51,129 nucleotides of DNA from a virus, in the IMG/VR virus record IMGVR_UViG_3300033412_000644; one strand, written 5' to 3'. The position numbers were made by a program, and so were the translations under genes. The notes under the pieces were generated by a model. That model saw only the letters and a list, made by a program, of their open reading frames with translations, had not been told where the DNA came from and ran no database searches. This document shows, one piece after another, positions 776-43,776 of this stretch (its first letter is position 1; each line of letters opens with the position of its first letter).

Positions 776-2128
776 ATGAGCACCGACCGTTGGGCCGGCG
801 TAGTCCGGCCATACCCTTGGGCTGATGTGAAGCGTCTGCAGGGACGCACCAAAGTCAAACACACACTGGCCGAGGAGGGTGCAACTCGCCTCTGGTCGTT
901 GATGTGTGGGAGACCTTTCGTCCGCGCGCTGGGAGCGTCAACGGGCAACATGGCCGTCCAACAGGTCAAGGCCGGGTTGGAGGCGATCTACTGCAGCGGC
1001 TGGCAAGTCGCGGCAGACGCCAACAACGCCGGGCACACCTATCCGGACCAGAGCCTGTACCCCGCCGACAGCGTGCCGACGCTGGTCCGACGCATCAACA
1101 ACGCGATGCTCAGAGCTGAGCAGATCGATACGTTGGATGACGACGGAGATCTCAAGAAGCCGTACAAGCACTGGATGGCTCCCATCGTCGCCGACGCTGA
1201 AGCAGGCTTCGGCGGTCCACTCAACGCCTACGAACTGGTGAAAGCGCTAGTCGAAGCGGGAGCGGCAGGCATCCACCTCGAGGACCAGCTCGCCAGCGCT
1301 AAGAAGTGCGGCCACCTGGGTGGCAAGGTGCTAGTGCCAACGAAGCAATTCATCCAGACGTTGATCGCGGCCCGCTTGGCCTGTGACGTGTTGGAAGTAC
1401 CGACGGTCATCATCGCCAGGACTGATGCGCTGAGCGCGCAACTGATCACTTCTGATGTCGACACTCAAAACGACTGGAAGTACTGCGAACACAACAAGGG
1501 CCGTACCTCCGAGGGCTTCTACTACTTGGGCGGCGACCCGATGGAGCGCACCATCGCTCGTGGACTCGCCTACGCGCCCTATGCTGACGTCCTCTGGTTC
1601 GAGACGTCGGAGCCCGACATGCACCAGGCGTGGCGTTTCGCTGACGCCATTCGCGGCAAGTTCCCGGGCAAGATGTTGGCCTACAACTGCAGCCCGTCGT
1701 TCAACTGGAAGAAGAAGCTGTCCGACGTCGACATCGCCCGTTTCCAGGACGAGCTGGGCAAGATGGGCTACAAGTTCCAGTTCGTCACGTTGGCTGGGTT
1801 CCATGCACTGTCGCACGGTATGTTCAAGTTGGCCCACAGCTACAAGGACGCGGGCATGACGGCGTACGCTGAGCTTCAGGAGCAGGAGTTCGCCAGCGAG
1901 AAAGACGGCTACACCGCGACTCGCCACCAGCGTGAGGTGGGCACCGGTTACTTCGATACGATTGCGCAGATCGTCAGTGGAGGCACTGCGTCAACGTTGG
2001 CCTTGGAAGGCTCGACGGAGACTGCGCAGTTCACTGAACACGGCGCGGTAGACGAGGTAGGATCGAAGGGTGAACCCTCCGGAGATCAAGAAACGCAAGA
2101 CGTTCAGCCTTCGCCTGAACAAGTTTGA
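776..2128 (+). CDS. aceA: isocitrate lyase (bacterial short type) with ~30-aa C-terminal extension
   Basis: Catalytic signature KKCGHLGGK. Long colinear identity to E. coli AceA ([42 protein letters not shown]). Confidence 0.93.
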
Positions 2129-3213: not shown

Positions 3214-3741
3214 ATGAAGAAGACGTCACAGCAGTGGTGGGCGGAGGTCAAGGCCGATCCTGACAAGCTCAACGGTTGGTTGATCAGGCAGTACCGAGGA
3301 GAAGCGACGGCGAGTCGACGCATCAAGGAATTCGCCGACCGCTACGCTCCGGACACGGTGACCAAGCGAATCCTCGGCATGATCGCCGACCAAGAGAAGC
3401 AACACGCAGAGTGGGTGTTGGAGCTGTTGAAGGCACGAGGCATCGAGCCCAACCTCAACGACGCCGAGAAGCGCTACTGGAAAGAGACGTTGCCCGACAT
3501 CAAGACGTTCGCGACCGGAGCCGCAGTGGGTGCTCACGCCGAGCGGATGCGCCTCGAGCGAATCGAGACCATTGCCAACGACCGCGGCGCGCCCCAAGAC
3601 ATCCGGAAGACCTTCCAGCTGATCCTGAAGGACGAGCTGTTCCACGCCGCTGCGTTTGAGCAGATGGCGGGACCCGAAGCGTTGGAGCAGACGCTCCCGT
3701 CGCACCGTCGAGGTCGCGAAGCGCTCGGCCTCGAGCCGTGA
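3214..3741 (+). CDS. ferritin-like helical protein (two ExxH motifs)
   Basis: EKQH and ELFH motifs about 100 aa apart in a predicted all-helical 175-aa protein. A diiron-carboxylate-like fold is inferred only. Confidence 0.4.
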   Translation: MKKTSQQWWAEVKADPDKLNGWLIRQYRGEATASRRIKEFADRYAPDTVTKRILGMIADQEKQHAEWVLELLKARGIEPNLNDAEKRYWKETLPDIKTFATGAAVGAHAERMRLERIETIANDRGAPQDIRKTFQLILKDELFHAAAFEQMAGPEALEQTLPSHRRGREALGLEP

Positions 3742-4735: not shown

Positions 4736-5107
4736 ATGGCAGAGAGCAAGCTGTTCTACGTCTGGGTGACGATGATCAGCGAACCCAACGCGGAGCGCTT
4801 GGTCGGCAAGCTCGTTCGCAGGAACTGGAAGGTGCAGGCCTTGGGCAATCACCTGGTGCTGCACAGCCAGGAGAGCCCGTGTGCCTTGGTCGCCATCTCA
4901 CTGTCGCGGACTGAGCCGTTGAAGAAAGGCGAGGAGGTCGGTTACACTGCCGTCCTCGAAGAAGTCAAGGACGTGCTGAAGCGCCTCGACGTCAAGTACA
5001 TGAACCTCATCGTCACTGAGTCGACGGGCTGCACTTGGTGTTTGGGCAACATCAACCTCACGCAAGAAAAGAAGCAACTCGAAGAAGAGAAGAAGGGCCT
5101 CAACTGA
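4736..5107 (+). CDS. hypothetical protein
   Basis: Start lies 1 nt after the upstream stop. 123 aa; lysine/glutamate-rich C terminus. Confidence 0.4.
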   Translation: MAESKLFYVWVTMISEPNAERLVGKLVRRNWKVQALGNHLVLHSQESPCALVAISLSRTEPLKKGEEVGYTAVLEEVKDVLKRLDVKYMNLIVTESTGCTWCLGNINLTQEKKQLEEEKKGLN

Positions 5108-5871
5108 TGTTGCACGATTCATTGGGCGACCGCATGAAGGCCTACGAGGTCGCAGCGCGGACGGTGCTGCCTCACCGGCTGCCTGTCATCATTCGCGTCG
5201 ACGGCAAGGCATTTCACACCTACACTGCCAAGTGCGAGCGTCCATTCGACCGACGCTTGAGCGACGTCATGGTGTCGACGGCGAAGCGCCTGTGCGAAGA
5301 GATCCAGGGAGCCCAGTTGGCCTACACTCAGTCGGACGAGATTTCGATCCTGGTGCACGGCTACAAGAAGTTCGACACGCAGTCGTGGTTCGACAACCAA
5401 GTTCAGAAGATGACCAGCATCGCTGCGGCGACGGCATCATCACACTTCAGCCTCAACTCCTGGCTCATCTGGGGCGATTGGAAGGATGACACCTTCTACA
5501 AGCCCGCCGATGTCATGAAGGCGCTGCGACCGGCGACCTTCGACGCTCGCGTCTTCATCATCCCCGAGGCCGACGTCTGCAATTACTTCCTGTGGCGACA
5601 GCAGGACGCGACCCGCAACTCAGTCCAGATGCTAGCTCGCTCGCTGTACTCGCACAAGCAGTGCAACAACAAGAACGGCGTCGAGCTGCAGGAGATGTGC
5701 TTTCAAAAGGGTCACAACTGGAACGACCTGGAGCCTCGGTGGAAACGCGGCGTCTGCATCCTCCGGCCGCTGACCAACGACCGGAACCCATGGCACCTCG
5801 ACGACCAGATCCCGATCTTCTCACAGGATCGTAGCTACATCAATGACCTGCTGAAGCTTGAGGAAGAGTGA
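5107..5871 (+). CDS. Thg1-like protein (tRNA-His guanylyltransferase family)
   Basis: MKAYE...RLPVIIRVDGKAFHTYT...RPFD...SDEISIL matches the Thg1 N-terminal catalytic region (RxDGxxFHxF, PxD). TGATG overlap with the upstream gene. Confidence 0.72.
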   Translation: MLHDSLGDRMKAYEVAARTVLPHRLPVIIRVDGKAFHTYTAKCERPFDRRLSDVMVSTAKRLCEEIQGAQLAYTQSDEISILVHGYKKFDTQSWFDNQVQKMTSIAAATASSHFSLNSWLIWGDWKDDTFYKPADVMKALRPATFDARVFIIPEADVCNYFLWRQQDATRNSVQMLARSLYSHKQCNNKNGVELQEMCFQKGHNWNDLEPRWKRGVCILRPLTNDRNPWHLDDQIPIFSQDRSYINDLLKLEEE

Positions 5872-8101: not shown

Positions 8102-8455
8102 ATGCCTGGAATGTCACCGCCGATGTCGCTGAAGGGCGACCCCGATATGCACCTGAAGAAGGTGCTGAAGAAGTATAAGAAGGATGACGTGTTCGATGAC
8201 GTGTCATCGTGGCTCGACATGGAACCCGGCTCGCCCGGCTCGTTGAAGAAGCACTGGATCCTGACCTTTGCCGACAACGCCGTTGACGACAAGGGCTACG
8301 CCACCAAGGAGGATTGGGAGATCGACCTCAAGGACCCGACGACGTGGCCTGGGGACGTGCCTGACATGCCGCCCGATCAGTTTTTCCTCGACCTGTTCAA
8401 GGCGATCAAGCTCGACGAGAAGCGCCGCAACAAGCGTTCCAGCTACGAGTTCTGA
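8102..8455 (+). CDS. hypothetical protein
   Basis: 117-aa ORF with AGAGG upstream of the start. Confidence 0.4.
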   Translation: MPGMSPPMSLKGDPDMHLKKVLKKYKKDDVFDDVSSWLDMEPGSPGSLKKHWILTFADNAVDDKGYATKEDWEIDLKDPTTWPGDVPDMPPDQFFLDLFKAIKLDEKRRNKRSSYEF

Positions 8456-8469
8456 AGTACAACGGATCT

Positions 8470-8655
8470 ATGAAGCGCTCACTGCTCTGGCGACTGAAGC
8501 ACCTGGTCCACAACTGCGTGGCTCACCCACTGCTGCCTCTTGCCGAAGCCCTGGACTCGGCGGAGTTGTACCGAACTTCAGACATCCTCTTCAAGTTTCA
8601 TGACATCACTACGCCTGATGATGACCCGCGCAATCGGTTGAGGTACTTGTCGTAG
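8470..8655 (+). CDS. hypothetical small protein
   Basis: 61-aa ORF followed by the only AT-richer gap on this strand. Confidence 0.3.
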   Translation: MKRSLLWRLKHLVHNCVAHPLLPLAEALDSAELYRTSDILFKFHDITTPDDDPRNRLRYLS

Positions 8656-8723
8656 CTTTAGAGCCATTTGCCCGCTCGCACATTTTCCTGTTCCGCACAG
8701 TAAATCGTGATAGACTTAAAATC

Positions 8724-9128
8724 ATGCAATACGAAAAAGGTGATCAGGTCAATGACGGTAGGTACAATTTCACGTTCCTAGAGTATGGGAGCGATGGGAG
8801 GCCCGTCGTGCTGAATTGGGCGTTCGGCATGGAGGGAAAAAAGACAGAACGTTGGGTCGTTGATCCGGCGACACTACGCGATGGTTGGTTGACTAGTCGA
8901 CGTGACGGGCCAACGTTGAATTTCGTGGCGCCGGCGAAGCCGAAAGGTCTCAATGATCCCTACGAGCTCGCTCTGCACGTGGCCAAGAACTGGCAAAAGA
9001 TCACCGGTCTTCCGAAGTCGGCGATGCACGAAGAGGGTGAGTTTCCCGAGGCGGTTGAGAAGCTCTGCGCGGCATACAATGTCGACCTCACTGATTTTTC
9101 GGACGCCTGGAACGAGGTGCATTCATGA
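8724..9128 (+). CDS. hypothetical protein
   Basis: 134 aa. ATGA overlap with the next gene. Confidence 0.45.
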   Translation: MQYEKGDQVNDGRYNFTFLEYGSDGRPVVLNWAFGMEGKKTERWVVDPATLRDGWLTSRRDGPTLNFVAPAKPKGLNDPYELALHVAKNWQKITGLPKSAMHEEGEFPEAVEKLCAAYNVDLTDFSDAWNEVHS

Positions 9129-9550
9129 CCGTCGCCGTCTCATCGCAAGCCGTCTCGCAGATCCTGAACAACCTCAAGACAGCTGCGAAGCGCCTCGCCG
9201 ACATGAACGTGGGGCGAGTTCCGAGGGACGTGGCCGAGAACCTGAAGGCCTATTCGGCGTACCTCCAACAGGTCGCTGCCGACGTTGAAGAGTTCGCTCA
9301 GTCAGCCAAGTTTCCGCGGCGCGACTGGGGCCTCGCCAACAAGGTGCAGCACGTGGCCGAAGGCCTCAGTGAGCTCGACTTGCGCCGCCTTCGCAAGGCC
9401 GACATCGCCTGGTTGACGGAGGTTGTTGAAGACCTCTGGGACATCAGGGGAGCGCTGGTCAACCTGGAGTCGGGCGGCAACGCTAAGGTCATGGGTTGGG
9501 ACCCCGAGGCCAAAGCGTATCGAAAGAACAAGTACGTAGACGAAGGCTGA
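9125..9550 (+). CDS. hypothetical protein
   Basis: 141 aa, helical. Confidence 0.45.
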   Translation: MTVAVSSQAVSQILNNLKTAAKRLADMNVGRVPRDVAENLKAYSAYLQQVAADVEEFAQSAKFPRRDWGLANKVQHVAEGLSELDLRRLRKADIAWLTEVVEDLWDIRGALVNLESGGNAKVMGWDPEAKAYRKNKYVDEG

Positions 9551-9597
9551 ACACTCTCGGCATTTCGGGCCTACCTAGACGACATGGGAGGTGCACC

Positions 9598-10095
9598 ATG
9601 TCGAAGATCGCGCGTATGCTGGGTTTCGCGTGGGCACTTCCGCTCACTGTAGCGGGAGCGCTCTACGCCACACTGTTCACCCTGGCGGGTTGGTACAGTC
9701 GCATCGGCCAACGCGGCGATGCCTGGGTATGGCAATTGAGACCTGAGAAGGCACCACCGTGGCTCCTCAAGAAGTGGACTCACTGGGGCGGTCACACCAT
9801 CGGCAACGTCGTCGTCATGAAGTACGATCCCGACAGTGACCGCGGTAGGATCACCCTGCGCCACGAGCAGGAACACGTCCACCAGTGCATGGCGCTGGGG
9901 ATCTTTCAACCCATCCTCTACTACGCAGCGTACCTCGGCCTGCTGACGTGCCGCCACGCTCACCCGTACTACGACAATCCTTTCGAGATCGATGCTCGGC
10001 GGGCTGCGGGACAAGTGGTCGATGTGGTGGGCGCAGTGAGGCGCGCCCACGCCCTGGGCAAGTTGCCCCTGAAGCCACCGGTGAAGCATACTTAG
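9598..10095 (+). CDS. membrane protein with HEQEHxH metal-binding-like motif
   Basis: GGGAGGTG Shine-Dalgarno at 9586-9593 ahead of the ATG at 9598. N-terminal TM helices. HEQEHVHQ motif. Confidence 0.45.
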   Translation: MSKIARMLGFAWALPLTVAGALYATLFTLAGWYSRIGQRGDAWVWQLRPEKAPPWLLKKWTHWGGHTIGNVVVMKYDPDSDRGRITLRHEQEHVHQCMALGIFQPILYYAAYLGLLTCRHAHPYYDNPFEIDARRAAGQVVDVVGAVRRAHALGKLPLKPPVKHT

Positions 10096-13182: not shown

Positions 13183-13613
13183 GCATCAAAAGTACATTGA
13201 AGAAGATCGGCGCGACGCTGACCATCGCCGGAGCGACGGCCGCGGCGTGCGTCGGCTGCCCGAAGCAACCCGATCCGGTGACGCCTCAGCCGCCGGTCAT
13301 CACTGATCAGGCATCGTGCCAGGCGGCGTGCGACAACCTGCGGGCGCTGGGCTGCGACGAGGGAAACCCGATCGACACCGGCGCACCCTGCACTGCCAGC
13401 AACCAGTGCCAGTCGGGCCAGACGTGCTCGGCTTTGGGCACCTGCATCGTCAGCTGCGTCCAGTTTTGCATGGACACCGAGAATGCCGGCGTCTGGCTGG
13501 ATCCGGTGTGCGTCAGCAAGATCACCAGCTGCGGTCAAATCGACCAGTGCCCGGCCGCGCAGCCCAAGGCCAAGGCATGCACAGGCAGCGAGTGTCGCAT
13601 CATCGCCAACTGA
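13179..13613 (+). CDS. secreted Cys-rich (lipo)protein
   Basis: Signal peptide ending AAAC, followed by a Pro-rich segment and about 20 cysteines. Confidence 0.45.
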   Translation: MSIKSTLKKIGATLTIAGATAAACVGCPKQPDPVTPQPPVITDQASCQAACDNLRALGCDEGNPIDTGAPCTASNQCQSGQTCSALGTCIVSCVQFCMDTENAGVWLDPVCVSKITSCGQIDQCPAAQPKAKACTGSECRIIAN

Positions 13614-13657
13614 AGACGCTGCGGGTGTACATCCGCGAGGTCCTGGATGGTTTTTCC

Positions 13658-14146
13658 ATGGCCGGCGCCCGTCGCTTCGAGGCTCCTCCGGGCAACCTGA
13701 GGTACGACGCGATGACGACCGGTCAAACGGGAGGCCACATCTTGAGCGACGAACAGGCCGAGCAGGACAAGCAGAAGCAGAAGACGATGAAGGCGGCGAC
13801 GGTGCTGGTCATCGCCGACGACGGCAAGGTGCTGGCGGTCAGCCGGCGCGACGACCCGTCGGCCTTCGGCCTGCCAGGAGGTAAGGTCGACCCGGGCGAG
13901 ACGCTAGAACAAGCTGCGGCTCGTGAGCTCCAAGAGGAAACAGGCCTGACGGCGACCGACCTCCGCCCCGTCTTCACTCGCCAGGAGGATGACGGCTTCA
14001 CCACGACGACGTTCGTCGGCAAGGTGTCAGGCCAGATCAACACCGACGAGGAGGGCGTCATCCGGTGGGTCGACCCCGAGGTCCTGTTCGCGGGACCCTT
14101 TGGCGGCTACAACCGCAAGTTGTTCGCCCAGTTGGGGCTCAAGTAG
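13658..14146 (+). CDS. NUDIX hydrolase
   Basis: Nudix box GLPGGKVDPGETLEQAAARELQEETGL. Start uncertain (13658, 13712 or 13787); the longer upstream ORF overlaps the previous gene. Confidence 0.75.
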   Translation: MAGARRFEAPPGNLRYDAMTTGQTGGHILSDEQAEQDKQKQKTMKAATVLVIADDGKVLAVSRRDDPSAFGLPGGKVDPGETLEQAAARELQEETGLTATDLRPVFTRQEDDGFTTTTFVGKVSGQINTDEEGVIRWVDPEVLFAGPFGGYNRKLFAQLGLK

Positions 14147-15073: not shown

Positions 15074-16167
15074 GATTCGAGCCGGGATTCGTCCAGGGAC
15101 TCCGCGACGACCTGAAGCAAGTGCGCAGCGACTACCGCGACCGAGTGGAACGGCTCGGCGGTCTGACGGGTGAAGAGCTCGTCAAGTTGGTCAGCGCACC
15201 GCGGGAAGACCAAGTCGCGTTTCCGGACCACCCAACTCACCGCGACCTCGACACCTACCTCAACGCTGAAGTCCACCGCAGCGTCGGCGTCGACGCGATC
15301 AAGAACGGAGAGGTAGGTTACATCATCCTCGCTGGCGGCGCGGGCACCCGAATCGGTGGGCCCAAGGCGCTGATGCAGCTACCAGGCCTGGGCCTGTCGT
15401 TGCTGGCACAGAAGGTGATGTCGGCCAACGTCGAAGGACACGCTCTGCCGCTGTACATCATGACATCGCCAGGCATGTTGACGGACATCGGCCGGACGTT
15501 GAGCAGCCTGTCGCCCCTGCCTCAAGGCATCGCCTTTGAGCAGTTCGAGTCGTATCGTCTGACTCCCGACAATCGTTTGGCGTTTTTGAAGCCGAACGTA
15601 CCGGACCTTTATCCGACAGGTCACGGCGACGTGGGCATGGCGATCAGGACCTCGGGCGCTTTGGCCGAGAACCCCAACATCAAGCACTTCATCATCGTCA
15701 ATGTTGACAATGTGTGTGGCACTCCCGACCCGATCGTACTGGGTCATCACATCGCCACCAATGCACCGGTGACGTGTGAAGTCGTCGCTCGCAATGAAAG
15801 CGACAAAGCAGGCGGAGTGCTGGCGTGGGTCGACAACATGCTGCAGGTCGTCGAGGCGTTCCGGTTGGAGCCCAGCTTCGTCGAGGACTCGACGTACACC
15901 AACACCAACACCATGATCATCCGACGGGATGTGCTGGAGGCTGACATCACGTGGAAGTGGCACCGCGTCCGCAAGCAAGTCGGGACTCGCCTCGTCATCC
16001 AGCACGAGCGCCTGTTGCAGCAGTACACCGCGCTGCACTCCACGCGTTATGTCGTGGTGCCGCGAGAACAACGCTACTTCCCGATCAAGGATGAGGCTGC
16101 CCTGCAAGAAGCAGGCAAGCTCTTCAATGGCAACCCCATGAAGAGCGTGGTAAAATGCGAACCGTGA
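15070..16167 (+). CDS. UDP-sugar pyrophosphorylase (UDPGP family, UAP1/USP-like)
   Basis: GYIILAGGAGTRIGGPKAL nucleotide-binding loop (LAGGxGTRLG) and PTGHGDV motif. Confidence 0.65.
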   Translation: MRFEPGFVQGLRDDLKQVRSDYRDRVERLGGLTGEELVKLVSAPREDQVAFPDHPTHRDLDTYLNAEVHRSVGVDAIKNGEVGYIILAGGAGTRIGGPKALMQLPGLGLSLLAQKVMSANVEGHALPLYIMTSPGMLTDIGRTLSSLSPLPQGIAFEQFESYRLTPDNRLAFLKPNVPDLYPTGHGDVGMAIRTSGALAENPNIKHFIIVNVDNVCGTPDPIVLGHHIATNAPVTCEVVARNESDKAGGVLAWVDNMLQVVEAFRLEPSFVEDSTYTNTNTMIIRRDVLEADITWKWHRVRKQVGTRLVIQHERLLQQYTALHSTRYVVVPREQRYFPIKDEAALQEAGKLFNGNPMKSVVKCEP

Positions 16168-16595
16168 TTCCGAAAAGGTCGCCGTACGGACTCATCCAAG
16201 AAGACTTGTGGCCCAACGAGTGGCTCATCCTCGTCAGCTGCATGATGCTGAACTGCACGACGAGGAAGCAGGTCGAGAAGGTGCTACCGCCTTTCATCGC
16301 TGCGTGGCCCACGCCTCAGGCGTTTCTGAAAGCTGACCCGGAATCGATCCAGGCGATGATCAGGCCGTTGGGCTTCGCCAAGCGCAGGACGCAGAACCTG
16401 CTGAAGATGACGGAACGCTATCTAGCGGCGCCGTGGGAGCACGCTCACGAGCTGCCGGGCATCGGCGACTACGCGGCCCGAGCGTGGGAGATCTTCTGCC
16501 GCGATACATTGGGCGATGAACCGCCCAAGGATCATGCTTTGGTCCAGTACTGGACCTGGAGGAAGCAACATGAGCAACGCGAGGCGAATCGCTGA
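16155..16595 (+). CDS. MBD4-like HhH-GPD DNA glycosylase
   Basis: LWPNEWLILVSCMMLNCTTRKQ ... ELPGIGDYAARAWEIFC is colinear with the MBD4 glycosylase domain (DPWKLLIATIFLNRTSGKM ... ELHGIGKYGNDSYRIFC). Confidence 0.62.
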   Translation: MRTVIPKRSPYGLIQEDLWPNEWLILVSCMMLNCTTRKQVEKVLPPFIAAWPTPQAFLKADPESIQAMIRPLGFAKRRTQNLLKMTERYLAAPWEHAHELPGIGDYAARAWEIFCRDTLGDEPPKDHALVQYWTWRKQHEQREANR

Positions 16596-17673: not shown

Positions 17674-17750
17674 AACGACACCTCTGGATCATAGCTATTG
17701 GGTTGCGCTAAGGTTGTCCTGTGGGCGACGTCCAGTGTAGGATCCGCCAC

Positions 17751-18617
17751 ATGCCTGAAGGTCCGGAGCTGGCTCGCAGCCGAGATCATCTGCGAAAATT
17801 GGTGCAAGGCAAACGTCTGCGGACGTTTGGCATCAACCGCAATCACGGCGGCAGCACCGGCGGACGTTACGCCGACAAGGACCCCGAGGGAATGCTGGAG
17901 TTCCTCGGCTCGCTCAAGGCGACCGAGGCCGTCATCGACTCTGTCAACGTCAAAGGCAAGTTCATGTGGTGGACGCTGGCCTTGAAGGACGGCACTGCCT
18001 GGTGGCTGTGGTGCACCTACGGGATGTCAGGGCAGTGGACCACCAACAAGCCTGACAAGCACACCGCGGCGACGGCGTGGGTCGACAACCCCGACGGCAG
18101 TGGACTCCTGGCCGTCAACTTCCGGGACCCACGCCACTTCGGCACTCTCAAGTTCGTCAACAATCAGAAGCAGATGGAGCGCAAGCTGGCGTCGTTGGGC
18201 CCCGACATGCTCAACGACCCGCCTGACACGACCAAGTTCCGCCAGGCGCTGCTCCGCAAGCATGACCGTACGTTGGCTGAGGTGTTGATGGACCAGTCGG
18301 TCGTCAGCGGCGTCGGCAACTACGTCAAAGCCGAGAGCCTGTATCTCGCCGAGCTGTCGCCTCACCGCCTGGTGCGGGACCTCAAGACCGCCGAATTCGA
18401 GCACTTGCGGCAGCAGATCATCAATGTAATGCGCGCCAGCTACAACAATGGCGGAGCAACCATCCGTTCCTACGTGAACGTAGATGGCACCAAAGGCGGT
18501 ATGACAAGCCGCTTTGCGGTGTATGGTAACAAGACTGACCCGATGGGCAACCCCGTAGTGAAGGAAGAGACCGCTGATGGTCGCACCACCCACTGGGTAC
18601 CCACCATTCAGAAGTGA
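17751..18617 (+). CDS. Fpg/Nei family DNA glycosylase (endonuclease VIII-like)
   Basis: Canonical MPEGPEL N terminus (Pro2 nucleophile, Glu3) and an H2TH region. No zinc-finger cysteines at the C terminus. Confidence 0.75.
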   Translation: MPEGPELARSRDHLRKLVQGKRLRTFGINRNHGGSTGGRYADKDPEGMLEFLGSLKATEAVIDSVNVKGKFMWWTLALKDGTAWWLWCTYGMSGQWTTNKPDKHTAATAWVDNPDGSGLLAVNFRDPRHFGTLKFVNNQKQMERKLASLGPDMLNDPPDTTKFRQALLRKHDRTLAEVLMDQSVVSGVGNYVKAESLYLAELSPHRLVRDLKTAEFEHLRQQIINVMRASYNNGGATIRSYVNVDGTKGGMTSRFAVYGNKTDPMGNPVVKEETADGRTTHWVPTIQK

Positions 18618-19932: not shown

Positions 19933-20203
19933 CATCGATCGTTTGCTGGCGCCGTGGTTGGTGGGACGCCCACCCAACTACACGATGGACAGCGCCGCCA
20001 AGTACACGGTCGCCGTCGGCTATTGGTTGGCCGAGGAGCTGACGCGCATCGGCTGCAATGAAGCTGACCGCAAGACGCAGTGTTGGAAGTTCAACCGACA
20101 CAGCCGGACCTGGGACATCTTCGACGTTGCCGCTGAGTGCATGAATGAAGCAGTCGAAGGGCGCGTTGAACAGAATCGGAAGCCACACCGGAGGTGGGGA
20201 TGA
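19853..20203 (+). CDS. hypothetical protein
   Basis: 116-aa ORF. Start uncertain (the internal ATG at 19985 avoids an overlap). Confidence 0.3.
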   Translation: MMELKDGQAAGTSTYTAELIKQRVDADIDRLLAPWLVGRPPNYTMDSAAKYTVAVGYWLAEELTRIGCNEADRKTQCWKFNRHSRTWDIFDVAAECMNEAVEGRVEQNRKPHRRWG

Positions 20204-20535
20204 TGCGCTATCGGCACATCCACCGGCGTCCCAAGCGACGGGTTCGACCCGGCCGCAGCAAGATTCACGGTCGGGGTGCCTTCGCTACGCACGTCCTATT
20301 GAAGGGTGAGGTGTTCACCATCAATCACCTAGGACGGCGCAAGTGGGGTGGGTTCAATCACTCCTGTCGACCCAACGTCATCTTGTGCTGGACCCAAGAC
20401 GGTGATCAGTTCTGTGTCGCTCTGCGTCGCATCGAACGGCGCGAGGAGTTGACCGTCAGCTACAGCATCAAGCACGGCCGCCTTCGCAGCGGCGAACGCT
20501 GCAACTGCCCACACCACAAGAGGAAATCAAAATGA
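20200..20535 (+). CDS. minimal SET-domain protein lysine methyltransferase
   Basis: GRGAFATHVLLKGEVF, NHSCRPNV and EELTVSY motifs, with a Cys-rich post-SET tail. GGAGGTGGGG Shine-Dalgarno at 20190-20199. Confidence 0.65.
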   Translation: MMRYRHIHRRPKRRVRPGRSKIHGRGAFATHVLLKGEVFTINHLGRRKWGGFNHSCRPNVILCWTQDGDQFCVALRRIERREELTVSYSIKHGRLRSGERCNCPHHKRKSK

Positions 20536-20985: not shown

Positions 20986-21007
20986 TGTGAGGTACCGCAA
21001 CGACAAC

Positions 21008-21913
21008 ATGCTGCTGCGCATTGCTCAGGCTGATGCCTACGGCATGGCGCGTGAATACGTCAAGACCAAAGACGCACCTGATCACGTTGCCGAGTGCCTC
21101 AAGCTGGAGCGCTACCTGCGCCACCCTACATACCATAAGTTGCCGGCCGGCACCTACACTGACGACACCCAGATGTCGATCGCAGTGAGCGAGGTCCTGA
21201 TCAACAAGCACGGCGACGCCACCCACGAAGAGTGGGCCGAGGCGTTCTTCCAGGCGTTCAAGCGCGACCAACGAGACGGCTACTCCCGCCACTTCCAGGC
21301 GATCCTCGAGGAGGCCAGGGACAGCACCCACATGCGGTCGTTGCTGACGCCGACGTCGACTGCCAACGGCGCTTGCATGCGTGCAGTCCCGTTGGGCGTG
21401 TTGCCCAGCAAGAAGACGCTGCTTGAGGTCGCCGCCAAACAGGCGATGGTGACCCACGCGACCTACGGTGGCATCAATTCAGCCAGCGCCGTCGCCCTGA
21501 TGTCACACTTTGCCCTCTACGACCGTCGAGACTTTGCTTGCCTCTACGACTGGTGTTGCCATTGGCTGCCGGCGTTTGAGCTTTTCCGTGAGCCTTGGGT
21601 GGGCCCGGTGCAGGAGAATTCAAAGGACAAGAGGGGTCTCGGAGTCGGTATGAACACCGCGTGGGCGGTGAGCACCCTGCTCCGCGAAGAGAAGTCTTTG
21701 ATGGCGATCCTACGGCGCACCATCGAGTGGGGAGGCGACACCGATTCTGTCGCCGCGGTCGCCTGGGGAATTGCCTCGGCGCGGTACCAGGACGAGCAGC
21801 TGCCTGAGTTCTTCGAAAGAGATCTCGAAAAAGATAGTGGCAGCGCGTATGGGCCTACGTACCTGAAAGCGCTAGGCAAACAGCTGATGGACGCCTACAA
21901 CCCGCGCAGATAA
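21008..21913 (+). CDS. ADP-ribosylglycohydrolase (ARH/DraG family)
   Basis: C-terminal GGDTDSVAAVAWGIA matches the ARH GGDTDT motif. N-terminal LRIAQADAYGM. Start is 20987 (GTG) or 21008 (ATG). Confidence 0.65.
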   Translation: MLLRIAQADAYGMAREYVKTKDAPDHVAECLKLERYLRHPTYHKLPAGTYTDDTQMSIAVSEVLINKHGDATHEEWAEAFFQAFKRDQRDGYSRHFQAILEEARDSTHMRSLLTPTSTANGACMRAVPLGVLPSKKTLLEVAAKQAMVTHATYGGINSASAVALMSHFALYDRRDFACLYDWCCHWLPAFELFREPWVGPVQENSKDKRGLGVGMNTAWAVSTLLREEKSLMAILRRTIEWGGDTDSVAAVAWGIASARYQDEQLPEFFERDLEKDSGSAYGPTYLKALGKQLMDAYNPRR

Positions 21914-21943: not shown

Positions 21944-22984
21944 ATGAGCCACTTCACACTGACGGTCCGACTATCCGCTGAGCGTCTACGTCAACACGAT
22001 GACGACATCGAGTCGGCACTGGAGGAAATCCTCGCGCCCTACAACGAGCAGACCGAGGACCGGAAGTTCCAGGAGTTCCAGGACAACGAGGACGAGTACC
22101 TCGACGAGTACGAGAACAAGTCCACCAAGAAGATCAAAGGACCGCGTGGTCACCTCTACTGGCCTTGGGACGACAAGTTCCGCGTCAAAGGATCGTTCGG
22201 CACCGGCTCCGGCACCCACGATTACAAGCAGCTCGCCGGCTACACTGAGGTCGAGGTCCCATTCAAGAAGCTGTACGCCACCTTCGATGAGTTCTGCTCG
22301 CAGTACCACAGCAGCGAGCGCGATGCAGAGAAGGGTCGGCACGGTTACTGGCGCAATCCCAATGCAAAGTGGGACTGGTGGGTCATCGGTGGACGATGGT
22401 CGGGTCACTATCCTCTGAAGTCGACAGCACCGCGGCGCCTGGGCGAGTCCGGTGCCTTCAACAATGCGCCGACCCCCGATCACGGTGACATCGTCCGCAT
22501 CAGCGACCTCGACACCGACATCATCGCTACACAGACTCGAGAGAATGCCGAGAAGTTCTATGAGGAGTACGTCAAGCTGCTCGCTGGCGAGAAGTTCGAT
22601 GCCTTCGACGGACCTCGGAGTCGAGCGATGTCGCTGGGCCTGTTGCGAGTCGAACAGAAACCGGTCGAAGCGGGTCCTGGCGAAGTGGCGATGTCATGGC
22701 GTGACTCGGTGCGAGCTGACGACAAGCGTGCTGACTGGACCGACGTCGCCAAAGTCATCGACCGGGAGACCTTCCTGAGGGACTACACCGACTGCTTCAA
22801 TCCGATCCTGACTTACGCCGCTCTGGACGAAGAGGGTTGGCACGCTCCCGGGGAGATGGGCTGGTTCGGTTGCTCCAGCGACACACCGGAGGCGTACCTT
22901 CAGTTCAAGAATGAGTTCGTCCGACGCTTCATCAAGACTGCAGCGGCCGACGATGTGTTGGTCTGTGTGGACTGTCACATCTGA
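21944..22984 (+). CDS. hypothetical protein
   Basis: 346 aa, acidic N-terminal region, no recognised domain. Confidence 0.45.
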   Translation: MSHFTLTVRLSAERLRQHDDDIESALEEILAPYNEQTEDRKFQEFQDNEDEYLDEYENKSTKKIKGPRGHLYWPWDDKFRVKGSFGTGSGTHDYKQLAGYTEVEVPFKKLYATFDEFCSQYHSSERDAEKGRHGYWRNPNAKWDWWVIGGRWSGHYPLKSTAPRRLGESGAFNNAPTPDHGDIVRISDLDTDIIATQTRENAEKFYEEYVKLLAGEKFDAFDGPRSRAMSLGLLRVEQKPVEAGPGEVAMSWRDSVRADDKRADWTDVAKVIDRETFLRDYTDCFNPILTYAALDEEGWHAPGEMGWFGCSSDTPEAYLQFKNEFVRRFIKTAAADDVLVCVDCHI

Positions 22985-22990
22985 GGCACC

Positions 22991-23356
22991 ATGAGCTACA
23001 ACATCGACAGCGTCGATACGCCAGTGCTCAACGCTTGGATCCTGAAGAAGGACCTAAAGCGACTGTACAAGAAGCTCGAGGGCGACCTGCCCGAGATGAA
23101 CGTACTGGAAGAACACTTGGATGACGAGCCCGACGAGGACGGTCGCATCAAGTTGCGCAGCTTCGAATGGTGCGGCACTTGGTCGGGCAACTCGTGGAAG
23201 ACGCTAATCAAGCAGGTGGCGCCCAAAGTGATGGGCGAAGTCGAAGCCATCTTCACTTGGGAAGGTGGCGACAGCATCGGCGGTCTCCTCATCAAGGACG
23301 GCAAGGTCGCTGAAGTCGATGTCAAACAACAATTGGTCAGACCAGAAGGTTGGTGA
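22991..23356 (+). CDS. hypothetical protein
   Basis: 121 aa. Confidence 0.4.
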   Translation: MSYNIDSVDTPVLNAWILKKDLKRLYKKLEGDLPEMNVLEEHLDDEPDEDGRIKLRSFEWCGTWSGNSWKTLIKQVAPKVMGEVEAIFTWEGGDSIGGLLIKDGKVAEVDVKQQLVRPEGW

Positions 23357-24171
23357 CAGTGTGCACGCTGATCATCTTGAATGAGCACCATGACGATTGG
23401 CCGTTGATCATTGCGGCCAACCGCGACGAATTCTATGATCGGCCGTCAGCAGGTCCCGACCTCTTTGACACGCTGCCGCTTGCCATCATTGCTCCCAAGG
23501 ATTTGGAGCGAGGTGGCACCTGGATGGGTGCGACGCAGACGGGTTGGTTTGTCGGTCTCACCAACCAAGACGACGGCGACCACCGTGAAGGCATGGAGTC
23601 GCGAGGTCAAGTGGTCGCCGACTGCCTACGACTGTCGGGACACAAGGAGATTGCGCGCTACCTCATTGGCCTCAACCCAGAGAAGTACAACCCATTCAAC
23701 CTCGTCTTCGGCCGACCGGGAGCGATGTTCCTGAGCAAGGTGCACCGCGGTACTGAGGTCGACATGGAGATCATCCCGCAAGGCATCACCGTCATTTCGA
23801 ACGACTGTTCGGATGCCAGGGCGTACCAACGCAAGGTCAACCACGCGCTGGTGCTGGCGGGGTCGGTGGAATTCGATGACCCACTCGATGAGGTCGTGCG
23901 AAAGCTTCACTTGGTGTTGAGTGATCACTCACACTCGTATCCGAACCCGTACCAGTCATTGTGTGTTCACGATACCGAACGTGGCTTTGGTACACGATCT
24001 TCGGCAGTTGTCGCGGTGTCAAAAGAGGGCGACGTACGCTACTATCACTCTGAGGGGCCTGCGTGTCAGGTTGACACCATTCCGCTAGTGCGTGAACTGA
24101 TGACGTTGGATCTCAGCGATTTGGAAGAACCCACTGAGCTGACAGACGACGACATCGAGGTGATCGGATGA
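23350..24171 (+). CDS. NRDE-family protein (TANGO2-like, DUF833)
   Basis: LIIAANRDEFYDRPS and GGTWMG...GLTNQ match the TANGO2 N terminus closely. GTG start overlapping the upstream stop. Confidence 0.78.
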   Translation: MVTVCTLIILNEHHDDWPLIIAANRDEFYDRPSAGPDLFDTLPLAIIAPKDLERGGTWMGATQTGWFVGLTNQDDGDHREGMESRGQVVADCLRLSGHKEIARYLIGLNPEKYNPFNLVFGRPGAMFLSKVHRGTEVDMEIIPQGITVISNDCSDARAYQRKVNHALVLAGSVEFDDPLDEVVRKLHLVLSDHSHSYPNPYQSLCVHDTERGFGTRSSAVVAVSKEGDVRYYHSEGPACQVDTIPLVRELMTLDLSDLEEPTELTDDDIEVIG

Positions 24172-26832: not shown

Positions 26833-27126
26833 GTGCCTGACCTTGCGTACCTCGATGAACTCAACACTGCGATGGCACGGGTGCAGAACGCCTGTGATGG
26901 CGTGCCTCTGCCGATGAATGCGGTCGATGACTACGTGGTCGTCAGTGCAAACAAGGACAGTGATCCGACGATGGCCGAACGATGGCTGAGCCAACTACAG
27001 AATGACGGCTTCGTATTGTCATCCGGCGACTCGACGAACGCCTTGCTGAGGGATGAAGTCGACCGGGCACAGGTCAACCTGGTCGATTCGAACAACTACG
27101 TCGTCATGAAGATCTGGCTGAAGTGA
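26833..27126 (+). CDS. hypothetical protein (GTG start)
   Basis: AAGGAG at 26821-26826, a 6-nt spacer, then GTG at 26833. Confidence 0.4.
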   Translation: MPDLAYLDELNTAMARVQNACDGVPLPMNAVDDYVVVSANKDSDPTMAERWLSQLQNDGFVLSSGDSTNALLRDEVDRAQVNLVDSNNYVVMKIWLK

Positions 27127-27158: not shown

Positions 27159-28784
27159 ATGAACGGTTTCCAAGACCCCAACGAACCTGCATCGACTCAG
27201 GTCATCTTCTCCAGCGAAGCTCGCAAGCAACTGTACGAAGGCCTGAAGGTCGCCGCCGAAGCTGTCGGCTGCACGCTCGGCCCGAAGGGCAAGACAGTCC
27301 TCATCCAACGCCCCGGCGAGTCGCCCCTCGTCACCAAGGACGGCGTCACTGTCAGCAAGGCAATTCGCCTGAAGAATCAGGTGCAACGCATGGGCGCCGA
27401 GTTGATCCGAGAGGCTGCGGCCCGGACCAATGAGGTGGCAGGTGACGGCACCACGACGGCCACCATTCTGACCCACGCGTTGGTCCAGGAGGGCATCAAG
27501 CTGTTGGAGGCCGGTTACTCCTCACAGCTGCTGTGCCGAGGCATCGACAAGGCGGTCCAGCACCTGCTCGACCAGTTGAAGCAGGACGCCAAGCAGCTGA
27601 CGACCGACGAAGAGGTCGCCCAGGTCGGCACCATCAGCGCCAATGGCGACGCAAACATCGGCGACCTCATCGCTCAGGCGATGAAGAAAGTAGGCCGTGA
27701 CGGCATCATCACCGTCGAAGACGCCAAGGGTATGGCAACGACCCTCGAGGTCGTCGAAGGCATGCAGTTCGACCGAGGCTACCTCAGCCCCTACTTCGTC
27801 ACCAACCCCGAGCGGATGTTGGCGTCGTACGGTGATGCTCTGGTCCTGGTCACCGACAAGAAGCTCAACAGCCTCCGCGACCTGATCCCGGTGTTGGAAC
27901 AGGTGGTGCAAGCACAGCGCCCGCTGCTCATCATTGCCGAGGACGTCGAAGGTGAGGCACTGCAAGGATTGGTGTTGAACCGTGTCAAGTCGAACCTACC
28001 GGTCGTCTGCATCAAGGCGCCGGGCTACGGTTCCCACCGCGATGAACTCCTCCGGGACATCTGCGTCCTGACGGGAGCCACGCTGGTGTCTAGCGCGACC
28101 GGCGCGGACCTGAAGAGCGCCGCTGGGTGCTTGGGCCAGTGCAAGAAGATCGTTGTCGACGCCAAGACGTCGACCTTGGTCGGCACCGGCGCTACCAAAG
28201 AGCAGGTCGAGAAGCACGTCGCTGACCTCCGAGCCCAGTTGGAGGACGTCACCCTCGGCCAGGAAGACATCGTCAAGCTGAAGACCCGCGTCGCCAAATT
28301 GGCGTCAGGCGTCGCCGTCGTCAAGGTCGGCGGTGCGACTGAGGTCGAGATGAACGAACGCAAGTACCGCATCGAGGACGCACTCAACGCGACTCGCGCC
28401 GCGGCCGACGAAGGCATCGTTCCCGGCGGCGGCATGGCTCTATTCAACGCGGTCCAGGGAGTCAAGGGCGAGCTGTGCAAGCCCGGCATGGACCGCGATG
28501 AAGTCGCCGGAGTTGAGGTGGTCGTCGACGCCTGTCTCGCGCCCCTCAAAAAGATCGTCGCCAACGCCGGCCAGAACTCAGGCGTCGTCATCGACAACCT
28601 ACACCGTCAATCCGGTGTCGGCTACAACGCGGCAACCGGCAAGTACGAAGACCTGATCGCAGCGGGCATCATTGACCCGGTCAAGGTGACGCGGTCGGCG
28701 CTGCAGCACGCAGCGTCGGTGGCCACCACCTTCCTGTCGCTCGATGCAGTCGTCTGTGACGAGGAGAAGAAGGACAATGGCTGA
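27159..28784 (+). CDS. groEL: chaperonin GroEL (Hsp60), no GGM tail, no adjacent GroES
   Basis: About 50% colinear identity to E. coli GroEL (AGDGTTTATIL, VEGMQFDRGYLSPYF, PLLIIAEDVEGEAL, AADEGIVPGGG). TAGAAT -10-like hexamer 8 nt upstream. Confidence 0.95.
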   Translation: MNGFQDPNEPASTQVIFSSEARKQLYEGLKVAAEAVGCTLGPKGKTVLIQRPGESPLVTKDGVTVSKAIRLKNQVQRMGAELIREAAARTNEVAGDGTTTATILTHALVQEGIKLLEAGYSSQLLCRGIDKAVQHLLDQLKQDAKQLTTDEEVAQVGTISANGDANIGDLIAQAMKKVGRDGIITVEDAKGMATTLEVVEGMQFDRGYLSPYFVTNPERMLASYGDALVLVTDKKLNSLRDLIPVLEQVVQAQRPLLIIAEDVEGEALQGLVLNRVKSNLPVVCIKAPGYGSHRDELLRDICVLTGATLVSSATGADLKSAAGCLGQCKKIVVDAKTSTLVGTGATKEQVEKHVADLRAQLEDVTLGQEDIVKLKTRVAKLASGVAVVKVGGATEVEMNERKYRIEDALNATRAAADEGIVPGGGMALFNAVQGVKGELCKPGMDRDEVAGVEVVVDACLAPLKKIVANAGQNSGVVIDNLHRQSGVGYNAATGKYEDLIAAGIIDPVKVTRSALQHAASVATTFLSLDAVVCDEEKKDNG

Positions 28785-43013: not shown

Positions 43014-43463
43014 TCAAGCGTCCGTTACGAGTTGTGCTTGGTTGAAGTCTTCGTGATCCATCCACACTAGCTTGCCGTGCAGCATCACCACGTGCCAACG
43101 CTTCGGCGGCTGTGCCGGCGACACCATCAATCCACCTTCGTCGAGCATTGGAATGTTGGAGCCTGGCACCATGGCGGGTCCAGGATCGTCTGGCACGATG
43201 ACGACGAAGGTGTCGCCTCGCTTGATCATCACCTGTTCCTGCGTGTAGTCGAGGAAGTTTTCACGGGCCGATGACGTCACAGTGCTGAACATCCACCACC
43301 CGTCGTTGACCAGGAAGTTCCAGCGCCAGAGCTGTCCGGGCCTAACGACGATAGGTTCGACTGGTTCGTCTGACGTCTCGTTGTACCCGTCCATTGAAGT
43401 CCTGATCGAACATGTTGATTCCATGGTCTTCTTCTCGCTCCACTTCGTACTCGACGCTGCCAT
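43014..43463 (-). CDS. hypothetical protein
   Basis: 149 aa. Start uncertain. Confidence 0.35.
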   Translation of the reverse strand: MAASSTKWSEKKTMESTCSIRTSMDGYNETSDEPVEPIVVRPGQLWRWNFLVNDGWWMFSTVTSSARENFLDYTQEQVMIKRGDTFVVIVPDDPGPAMVPGSNIPMLDEGGLMVSPAQPPKRWHVVMLHGKLVWMDHEDFNQAQLVTDA

Positions 43464-43776
43464 CGATGTTGGCGGTGCACTTGATGTCGACGATCGACGG
43501 ATCGTCTACGTCGATGCCGTGGTATGTCTTCAGGTCCTCAGCAACCTCGGCGGACCAGCGAGCGTTGAGCTTCCGGGACTTGGCGAGGATGGGTTGTGAC
43601 TGGACCTCGATGGTCTCCATCCACGGAGGGTTCGCCCACAATACCACGGCTTCTTCGGCCAACGCGACCAACGTGCCGCGTGCGGCTTGGTCTTCAACGT
43701 GGGTGACGAAAGCACCGGGCGCAAGTCGACTGCCGTCTAGGCGCTGGATGAAACTGGGCGCATACTTGCGGAGCAC
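43342..43776 (-). CDS. hypothetical protein
   Basis: 144 aa. Confidence 0.35.
   Translation of the reverse strand: MLRKYAPSFIQRLDGSRLAPGAFVTHVEDQAARGTLVALAEEAVVLWANPPWMETIEVQSQPILAKSRKLNARWSAEVAEDLKTYHGIDVDDPSIVDIKCTANIDGSVEYEVEREEDHGINMFDQDFNGRVQRDVRRTSRTYRR

Follow-up and report, generated by a model that had tools for sequence, protein, structure and literature searches.

Introduction

Isocitrate lyase (ICL, AceA; EC 4.1.3.1) cleaves isocitrate to yield succinate and glyoxylate and is a competitor of isocitrate dehydrogenase at a branch point of the tricarboxylic acid (TCA) cycle; together with malate synthase (AceB) it forms the glyoxylate shunt, which conserves acetyl-CoA carbon. Both genes have been found in viruses: aceA as well as aceB in viromes of the ocean in 2013 (PMC4053976), an aceBA operon in 2017 in a T4-like viral genome, complete and of environmental origin (PMC5332604), and, in 2023, ICL in viruses whose predicted hosts are Pelagibacter and Woeseiales (PMC10721903). 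A 2025 preprint then counted, in 98 huge phages that include soil phages, 98 genes for ICL and 22 for malate synthase (bioRxiv 10.1101/2025.02.27.640493). A literature search found no experimental study of a phage ICL. Here we analyse IMG/VR virus record IMGVR_UViG_3300033412_000644, a stretch of 51,129 nucleotides (the window, meaning the whole stretch of DNA analysed), in which an aceA-type open reading frame (ORF) occupies positions 776–2128 on the + strand. With a probability of roughly 80%, we read it as a competent bacterial-type ICL carried by a ~358-kb huge bacteriophage as a long-retained auxiliary metabolic gene.

The ICL genes of the Huge Phage Genome Collection described in that preprint lie on phages from soil, freshwater, marine and other habitats whose genomes reach 200 kb or more, 76 of the 98 phages lack malate synthase, and malate synthase adjoins the ICL gene where it is present, the same pattern as seen here; the C-terminal tail, the insertion slot and the trimmed N-terminus are not described in the preprint. 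TARA_ERS478052_N000008 (PMC5332604) and the aceB-aceA pairs of IMG/VR marine contigs fall into the same ICL superclade as the window, and some of these marine contigs also have HhH-GPD, Fpg and 5′–3′ exonuclease genes in common with it. By contrast, their ICLs are tail-less, 55–68% identical, encoded in DNA of 38–45% GC and accompanied by malate synthase, whereas the window has ICL alone at 60% GC. Phage C48C1 (OQ984149, Kyanoviridae, 156 kb) is a complete genome with an ICL homologue of 54.5% identity amid phage genes, but this ICL is annotated as a hypothetical protein, lacks a tail and sits on a different backbone in a smaller genome. Most of the "phage" ICL matches returned by tblastn came from contigs of bacteria (Salmonella, E. 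coli, Acinetobacter) that are listed as phage, and only C48C1 was convincing.

Cellular AceA of the ICL1 type (~430 amino acids (aa); 6lrp/6lrt of Chloroflexus aurantiacus, 7cmx of Bacillus cereus and 1f8i of Mycobacterium tuberculosis (Mtb)) shares the fold (TM score 0.86–0.92), is 60–64% identical over fold-aligned columns and has identical catalytic residues, but the cellular genes stand in aceB-aceA operons with a regulator, and the phage ICL lacks ~15 N-terminal residues and carries the read-through tail. Phage-borne ICL is already published, and a preliminary description of the window overstated both its novelty and the significance of the tail; what is new in the present analysis is the family-wide synteny, the variable ICL slot, the trimmed N-terminus and the origin of the tail.

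Results

An intact isocitrate lyase gene of bacterial type

The ORF at 776–2128 (+) opens with ATG, encodes 450 aa including the tail and closes with TGA at 2126–2128. As a whole protein, it scored 681 bits against the NCBIfam equivalog NF011645 (curated cutoff 562) and 522 bits against TIGR01346 (cutoff 276), and it matched Pfam PF00463 (ICL) with E=5e-93, while phosphoenolpyruvate-mutase models scored far under their cutoffs. The top solved relative was Chloroflexus 6lrp (594 bits), followed by the B. cereus, Brucella and Mtb enzymes, with solved ICLs scoring 505–594 bits in the sequence search and being 57–64% identical over fold-aligned columns.

In an alignment of 236 homologues, the window ICL has the consensus residue at all 148 columns of at least 97% conservation, and the columns of its KKCGHLGGK stretch (residues 176–184) are invariant. 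All 20 Mg2+/substrate-binding or catalytic residues are kept; the Mg2+/substrate-binding positions in Mtb numbering are S91, G92, W93, D108, D153, E155, H180, E182, R228, E285, N313, S315, S317, T347 and L348. The core residues of the window ICL are SGW 74–76, D91, D140/E142 and H167/E169 (metal/substrate), the KKCGH loop at 176–180, R215, E276, NCSPS 304–308 and TL 338–339. The catalytic core to which these counts apply comprises residues 1–419 (776–2032, +) and has a ratio of nonsynonymous to synonymous substitution rates (dN/dS) of 0.09.

An AlphaFold2 model reached a predicted TM score (pTM) of 0.81, with low confidence only in two mobile active-site loops and residues 425–450. A Foldseek search of this model against the PDB returned the ICLs of Brucella, Chloroflexus, B. 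cereus and Mtb at TM scores of 0.86–0.92 and a root mean square deviation of 2.5 Å. The gene thus encodes an intact bacterial-type ICL that is predicted to be catalytically competent. The preliminary description had named a full-length ICL with KKCGHLGGK at 776–2128, and the same ORF was recovered here with its NF011645 and PF00463 matches; it had also called the enzyme catalytically intact, which the 148 conserved columns, the 20 catalytic residues and the structural matches bear out.

Genomic context of the isocitrate lyase gene

The window ICL protein is also encoded on the metagenomic ENA contig ERZ27274791:k133_3844997 of 357,674 bp, of which the window represents roughly 298.8–349.9 kb, and, amid the same neighbours, on short contigs of two further samples. 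An assembly chimera was ruled out by this identical ICL with the same neighbours in three independent samples.

The window contains ~95 tightly packed, mostly short ORFs, and ~70% of those tested had no Pfam or PHROG match. PHROG matches comprised Thg1 (phrog_4717), GroEL (phrog_5725), phrog_10079, phrog_7371 and phrog_21295, and other genes of the type found in large phages encode a 5′–3′ exonuclease, a NinI-like phosphatase, HNH, ADP-ribosylglycohydrolase, NUDIX, Fpg and HhH-GPD proteins and an AAA ATPase. No cellular housekeeping genes, tRNAs or Rfam families were seen in the window. With its length of 357,674 bp, its PHROG content and its density of ORFs without relatives, the replicon resembles the huge (jumbo) phages, taken as replicons of at least 200 kb with phage gene content.

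A 144-aa ORF at 43342–43776 (−) matched a segment of T4 Gp23 (PF07068, 37.2 bits, cutoff 24.4, profile positions 111–172 of 376; also phrog_138) and looks like a capsid-derived fragment or a small paralogue; only two homologues were found in 5.8 billion proteins, both small, and no full-length capsid gene was found with it as bait. For a 346-aa protein (21944–22984), the viral contigs of IMG/VR contain 45 relatives, some of them on contigs of 308–409 kb. When 25 kb of the window was compared with 50,697 phage records by megablast, nothing matched, and a tblastn search of phage records with eight concatenated window proteins returned mainly GroEL and was uninformative on lineage, so that neither search found a close cultured phage. 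A eukaryotic giant virus was ruled out by Shine–Dalgarno (SD)-coupled overlapping genes, ATGA stop/start overlaps, the PHROG families and the T4 Gp23 fragment.

The surroundings of ICL were inspected in six further members of its clade: P0003 at locus L121 (324,521 bp), the closest relative of the window ICL at 80% identity; P0090 at L123 (359,321 / 361,059 bp), found on more than 24 contigs and with aceB upstream of ICL; P0034 at L122 (204,651 bp, GC 35%); P0065 (239,499 bp, gene table only); P0092 at L170 (46 kb, JGI 3300020183 contig Ga0194115_10000733); and IMG/VR UViG_3300007177_004019 at L005 (19.4 kb, viral per IMG/VR). Each of the six contigs repeats parts of one backbone, made up of CN-hydrolase, Pterin-4a, NUDIX, ICL, Thg1/EamA, 5′–3′ exonuclease, phage lysozyme, peptidase C1, NUDIX, UDPGP, HhH-GPD and trypsin-like protease genes, with the phage lysozyme found in the syntenic relatives L121 and L123. 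Ten window genes stand in the same order in L005, and the genomes sharing the backbone, the window's included, range from 35% to 60% GC. Relatives of the window phage also carry UvdE.

The ICL gene is flanked on both sides by genes conserved in four related huge-phage-like contigs and in L005. Directly upstream lies a conserved 92-aa phage gene (468–746, +; 59–69% identity in L121, L122, L123 and L005), whose product has a borderline match to a GapR-like DNA-binding family (PF10073, 22.4 bits, cutoff 22.6). Downstream lie a conserved 121-aa phage gene of unassigned function (2070–2435, +; 57–59% identity in L121, L122 and L123, 54% in L005) and a conserved 162-aa phage gene (2435–2923, +; 31–50% identity in the same four loci). 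Homologues of this trio are contiguous in L122 and L005, where ICL is located elsewhere and is tail-less. In the window and L121 ICL sits between the homologues of the first two genes, and in L123 an aceB-aceA pair occupies that position, defining the ICL slot as the gap bounded by 468–746 and 2070–2435. Position and orientation of ICL vary among the backbone-sharing contigs, as expected of permuted assemblies of one replicon.

Locus L170 was deposited as "Chlamydiae MAG" (metagenome-assembled genome), and the NCBI ICL entry MBM3194147.1, labelled "MAG: Chlamydiae bacterium", sits on this contig, whose huge-phage backbone is that of the window; the Chlamydiae assignment is probably a binning error. 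Taking the PHROG families, the density of ORFs without relatives and the shared huge-phage backbone together, the contig very probably belongs to a phage, in agreement with the preliminary description, which had called the surrounding ORFs phage-like.

Phylogeny and selection

In a neighbour-joining tree built from 234 sequences and 405 columns with 100 bootstraps, the window ICL grouped with P0003–P0005 (bootstrap 81), and this group was nested in a clade of 29 members, all from metagenomes (bootstrap 84). A superclade with bootstrap 100 united every IMG/VR phage ICL, phage C48C1, Gemmatimonadota and Acidobacteriota, and excluded Bacillales and Chloroflexi. The window ICL is 62–69% identical to cellular ICLs, and genomes of Gemmatimonadota, Acidobacteriota, Bacillales and Chloroflexi all lie at 62–68%, with proteins from "Deltaproteobacteria" MAGs also at 68%. 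For malate synthase, Polyangiales and Acidobacteriota tied at ~57–60%. The phylogeny suggested in the preliminary description for tracing the donor therefore recovered a phage-rich superclade, but with several phyla at 62–68% it did not single out a donor phylum.

The N-terminus of the window ICL is ~15 residues shorter than those of cellular ICLs, and this trimming is shared by the 98-member clade around the window, whose proteins have 9–10 residues before a conserved Arg, compared with a median of 24 in the other, cellular-type ICLs. We take this short form to mark a clade specific to phages, one that follows a single family of huge phages with a common gene backbone. The dN/dS of the core is 0.09 against L121 and 0.16 against L123, as expected of a cellular-type metabolic gene under purifying selection, and the GC content of the ICL gene (60.7%) is close to that of the window (60.1%). 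Given that relatives of 35–60% GC carry the gene, that its GC content matches that of its own genome and that dN/dS is 0.09–0.16, we regard ICL as old in the phage lineage and under strongly purifying selection.

Malate synthase and the use of a solitary isocitrate lyase

In L123 a malate synthase gene (8450–9985, 511 aa) lies immediately upstream of ICL. With its product as tblastn query, no match was obtained in the window, the 10 kb upstream of it (L002), L121, L122 or C48C1, while in 17 of 36 IMG/VR loci, as in most bacterial ones, the query matched an aceB directly upstream of aceA. When a database was searched with this malate synthase, four phage-type short malate synthases came up among the best 120 of 8000 matches, three of them on contigs equal in length to those of P0090, P0013 and P0011; among these best 120 of 8000 matches, none of the clade type lay on the 357,674-bp or the 324,521-bp contig. 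The search for malate synthase that the preliminary description had proposed has thus been run for the window, the 10 kb upstream and, among the best 120 of 8000 matches, the contig, and returned none. Within the family, then, some members have aceB and others lack it, and the window phage appears to have ICL alone.

The phage-type malate synthases are short, at 504–511 aa (L123 8450–9985; P0124–P0126). Three of the four (P0123, P0125 and P0126) have no recorded match to the N-terminal domain PF20656 (MS_N), unlike nearly all cellular ones, which parallels the N-terminal trimming of the phage ICLs.

Other shunt partners were likewise missing. Pfam annotations from ~10 kb upstream to ~28,000, plus 43–51 kb, contained no aceK and no regulator of the IclR/RamB type; the ten largest ORFs of the 28–43 kb block had no Pfam matches, and no aceK-sized ORF without another assignment was present in the window. 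In the nearest ICL-carrying locus on an unambiguous bacterial chromosome (7.0 Mb), by contrast, the gene stands in a regulator-aceB-aceA operon.

The ICL gene is presumably expressed during infection, when its product would raise flux through isocitrate cleavage at the TCA branch point and bypass two CO2-releasing steps that produce NADH (reduced nicotinamide adenine dinucleotide). As no malate synthase lies nearby, the glyoxylate would be consumed by a host malate synthase or by another route, and the pay-off would be carbon conservation and a supply of precursors for replicating a 358-kb genome. Both the enzyme activity and the metabolic benefit to the phage we infer from the sequence, and the anaplerotic role in C2-compound or fatty-acid metabolism that the preliminary description put forward would be a matter of inference only.

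A different benefit is conceivable, in which ICL would lower NADH and reactive oxygen species (ROS), or supply succinate and glyoxylate (for example for glycine and purines), instead of serving a classical C2 shunt. Such a role would account for the many huge phages that have ICL but lack malate synthase. ICL stands alone in the window, L121, L122, L005 and L170, and malate synthase accompanies it in only 22 of the 98 ICL-carrying huge phages. In addition, genes connected with oxidative damage lie near the window ICL on the + strand, encoding a rubrerythrin (3214–3741), a NUDIX protein (~13316–14146), an HhH-GPD glycosylase (16155–16595) and Fpg/Nei (17721–18617); in the marine viral contigs L011 and L019, HhH-GPD and Fpg genes are found at a distance of a few kb (3–6 kb) from ICL, and a peroxiredoxin and a NifU-like gene lie near the ICL of phage C48C1. 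However, this co-location may just reflect a shared replication/repair backbone, the aceB-aceA pairs of some clade members point to the canonical shunt, and widespread host malate synthase could complete the pathway, so that we consider a redox or supply role unlikely, though it is the alternative that survives best.

A broader proposal that joins these observations is equally tentative: ICL may be a near-core gene, vertically inherited in a family of ~200–360 kb phages, with a trimmed N-terminus, exerting branch-point control and tied to an oxidative-repair module. The family in question spans host GC contents of 35–60% and several habitats, and most of its members have ICL without malate synthase. 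If this were true, the benefit would be control of the isocitrate branch point (lower NADH/ROS, or supply of succinate and glyoxylate) and not the full shunt.

Origin of the C-terminal tail

The 31-aa tail (residues 420–450; 2033–2125, +) extends past the conserved end ...STETAQF. The preliminary description had called this extension unique, which it is not: 17 proteins of the window's ICL clade, the window's included, have tails of 24–91 aa, and several ICLs of Acidobacteriota have tails of 18–49 aa. Twelve of the 17 tailed clade members share a semi-conserved VGS-x-H-G/A (EVGSxHG) motif followed by sequence rich in Ala, Gly, Glu and Pro.

Tails of other origin occur as well. The ICL of P0100 (963-kb contig, "Deltaproteobacteria" MAG) has a 134-aa hemerythrin domain (PF01814) fused to its C-terminus, and ICLs of Terriglobia (Acidobacteriota; L068, L072, L082, L092, L102) have conserved tails of 43–49 aa ending in ...LLPSGD. 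Both additions are unrelated to the phage tail.

Reading the DNA directly, we found that the motif coincides with the start signals of the next gene. An SD-like GAGGTAGGA (2054–2062) and the GTG start codon (2070–2072) of the downstream gene form an element at 2054–2072 (+) that reads E-V-G-S-K-G in the ICL frame, "E-V-G-S" being GAG GTA GGA TC., that is, the SD of the downstream gene, and "H-G" being CAT GG., which holds the ATG of that gene where it starts with ATG. The same element of SD and ATG is present in L121 and L123, where the ICL frame gives E/G-V-G-S/L-x-H/Y-G, and the window motif reads S-K-G without His because the downstream start is GTG (AAG GGT). The downstream frame is a real gene, given that it is 57–59% identical in L121, L122 and L123 and conserved from residue 5, even in L122, where ICL is not upstream.

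The two genes overlap in different reading frames by 59 nucleotides in the window, 107 in L121 and up to 110 in L123. In the window and L123, the ICL stop is a TGA that arises where the downstream gene has TTT-GAG (Phe-Glu); in L121 these codons are the synonymous TTC-GAG, and the ICL there reads 16 codons further, so that tail length follows from a synonymous TTT/TTC change in the downstream gene. Within the overlap, 9 of 13 residues are conserved between the window and L121 in the downstream frame and 5 of 13 in the ICL frame. The tail has a dN/dS of ~0.6 and is predicted to be disordered, with pLDDT (the per-residue model confidence) below 50 for residues 425–450. In L122, the gene upstream there also reads across the same SD into an ATGA overlap. 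The ICL ORF thus has no stop of its own after the core and runs through the SD, the start and the first ~19 codons of the next gene to a chance stop.

The tail is a position-dependent read-through product and most likely a passenger without a function of its own, although it may help to couple translation of the next gene. The C-terminus of solved ICLs such as those of Mtb is close to the active site of the neighbouring subunit, and one could imagine a tail specific to phage ICLs that acts as docking peptide, as extension of the regulatory lid or as localisation signal, in line with the motif shared by 12 of 17 tailed members and with a tail dN/dS below 1. We consider such a function improbable, since the motif coincides exactly with the downstream SD and start and loses its His where the start is GTG, the distal part overlaps a conserved gene whose frame is the better conserved one, a synonymous change downstream governs the length, ICLs in another slot (L005, L122) have no tail, and the tail is predicted to be disordered.

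Weighing the phage assignment and the substrate

Several observations weigh against an expressed, phage-borne ICL as we read it. The window ICL is preceded by no recognisable SD (L121 and L123 have AGAGG/GAGAGG) and by no recognisable sigma-70 promoter, and no convincing terminator was found near it. In the ~61 kb examined of the 357,674-bp contig, no complete virion hallmark gene (capsid, portal, terminase) was present, and a further ~45 ORFs, among them large unannotated proteins of L002, L121 and L122, had hardly any matches in PHROG or Pfam and yielded no virion genes. The deeper nodes of the neighbour-joining tree are weakly supported and do not settle the donor lineage, and a divergent malate synthase elsewhere on the 357,674-bp contig is possible.

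The missing capsid, portal and terminase genes would also fit a cellular contig (a chromosome fragment or megaplasmid) or an assembly chimera, in which ICL would be an ordinary host gene, as would the many cell-like enzymes of the window (GroEL, Fpg, UDPGP, NUDIX, SPFH) and the deposition of one ICL-clade member as a Chlamydiae MAG. However, that "Chlamydiae" contig has the same phage backbone, ~70% of the ORFs lack a Pfam match while PHROG-specific families and the Gp23 fragment are present, the viral contig L005 is syntenic with the window, contigs of ~360 kb recur in many samples, the identical ICL has the same neighbours in three samples, and true bacterial relatives have regulator-aceB-aceA operons. 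A chromosomal contig with aceB and aceK nearby, which the preliminary description had named as the finding that would overturn its reading, did not emerge, as neither gene nor any other cellular context was seen in the 51-kb window or the 10 kb upstream. A cellular or chimeric origin is thus very improbable.

The most improbable alternative is that the main substrate is 2-methylisocitrate, used by the methylcitrate cycle to detoxify propionate: ICL has its fold in common with methylisocitrate lyase, Mtb ICL1 acts on both substrates and prpB (methylisocitrate lyase) models match the window ICL weakly, but at 94 and 75 bits these matches fall far under cutoffs of ~354, whereas the ICL equivalog is over its cutoff and relatives pair ICL with malate synthase, not with prpC/prpD.

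Other features of the window

Near its end, the window encodes a 656-aa SPFH/Band-7 protein (46392–48362, −) and an 898-aa protein with a major-vault-protein shoulder domain (48396–51092, −; PF11978, 104.9 bits, with weak vault-repeat matches). This adjacent vault-like and SPFH gene pair is unusual for a phage-like genome. Domains familiar from eukaryotes are encoded on the + strand, namely a Thg1 tRNA-His guanylyltransferase (5035–5871), a papain-like peptidase C1 (12017–12859), a SET domain (20194–20535), an ADP-ribosylglycohydrolase (20987–21913) and TANGO2 (23350–24171); Thg1 is thus present in a window containing no tRNA genes. A full-length GroEL (27159–28784, +; phrog_5725, E=5e-157) is preceded by a 97-aa ORF (26833–27126, +) of the size of GroES, with no Cpn10 Pfam match on record.

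A TAnnnT hexamer starting at −13 to −11 from the ATG precedes 11 of 49 ATG-start genes (background ~3%), and SD-like motifs occur upstream of only 29 of 82 genes (background ~20%); the window ICL has neither signal. These figures suggest −10 boxes abutting start codons, as in leaderless-type transcripts, and such start signals may serve as a clue to the host.

Discussion

These results do not change current understanding. The tail carries a warning, in that a seemingly "novel domain" at the end of a phage protein can stem from read-through into a neighbouring gene that overlaps it. For the glyoxylate-shunt enzymes already known to be encoded by viruses, the window adds a well-documented case, in which ICL is an old and conserved gene of one huge-phage family and not a recent accidental pick-up, while malate synthase comes and goes beside it within the family.

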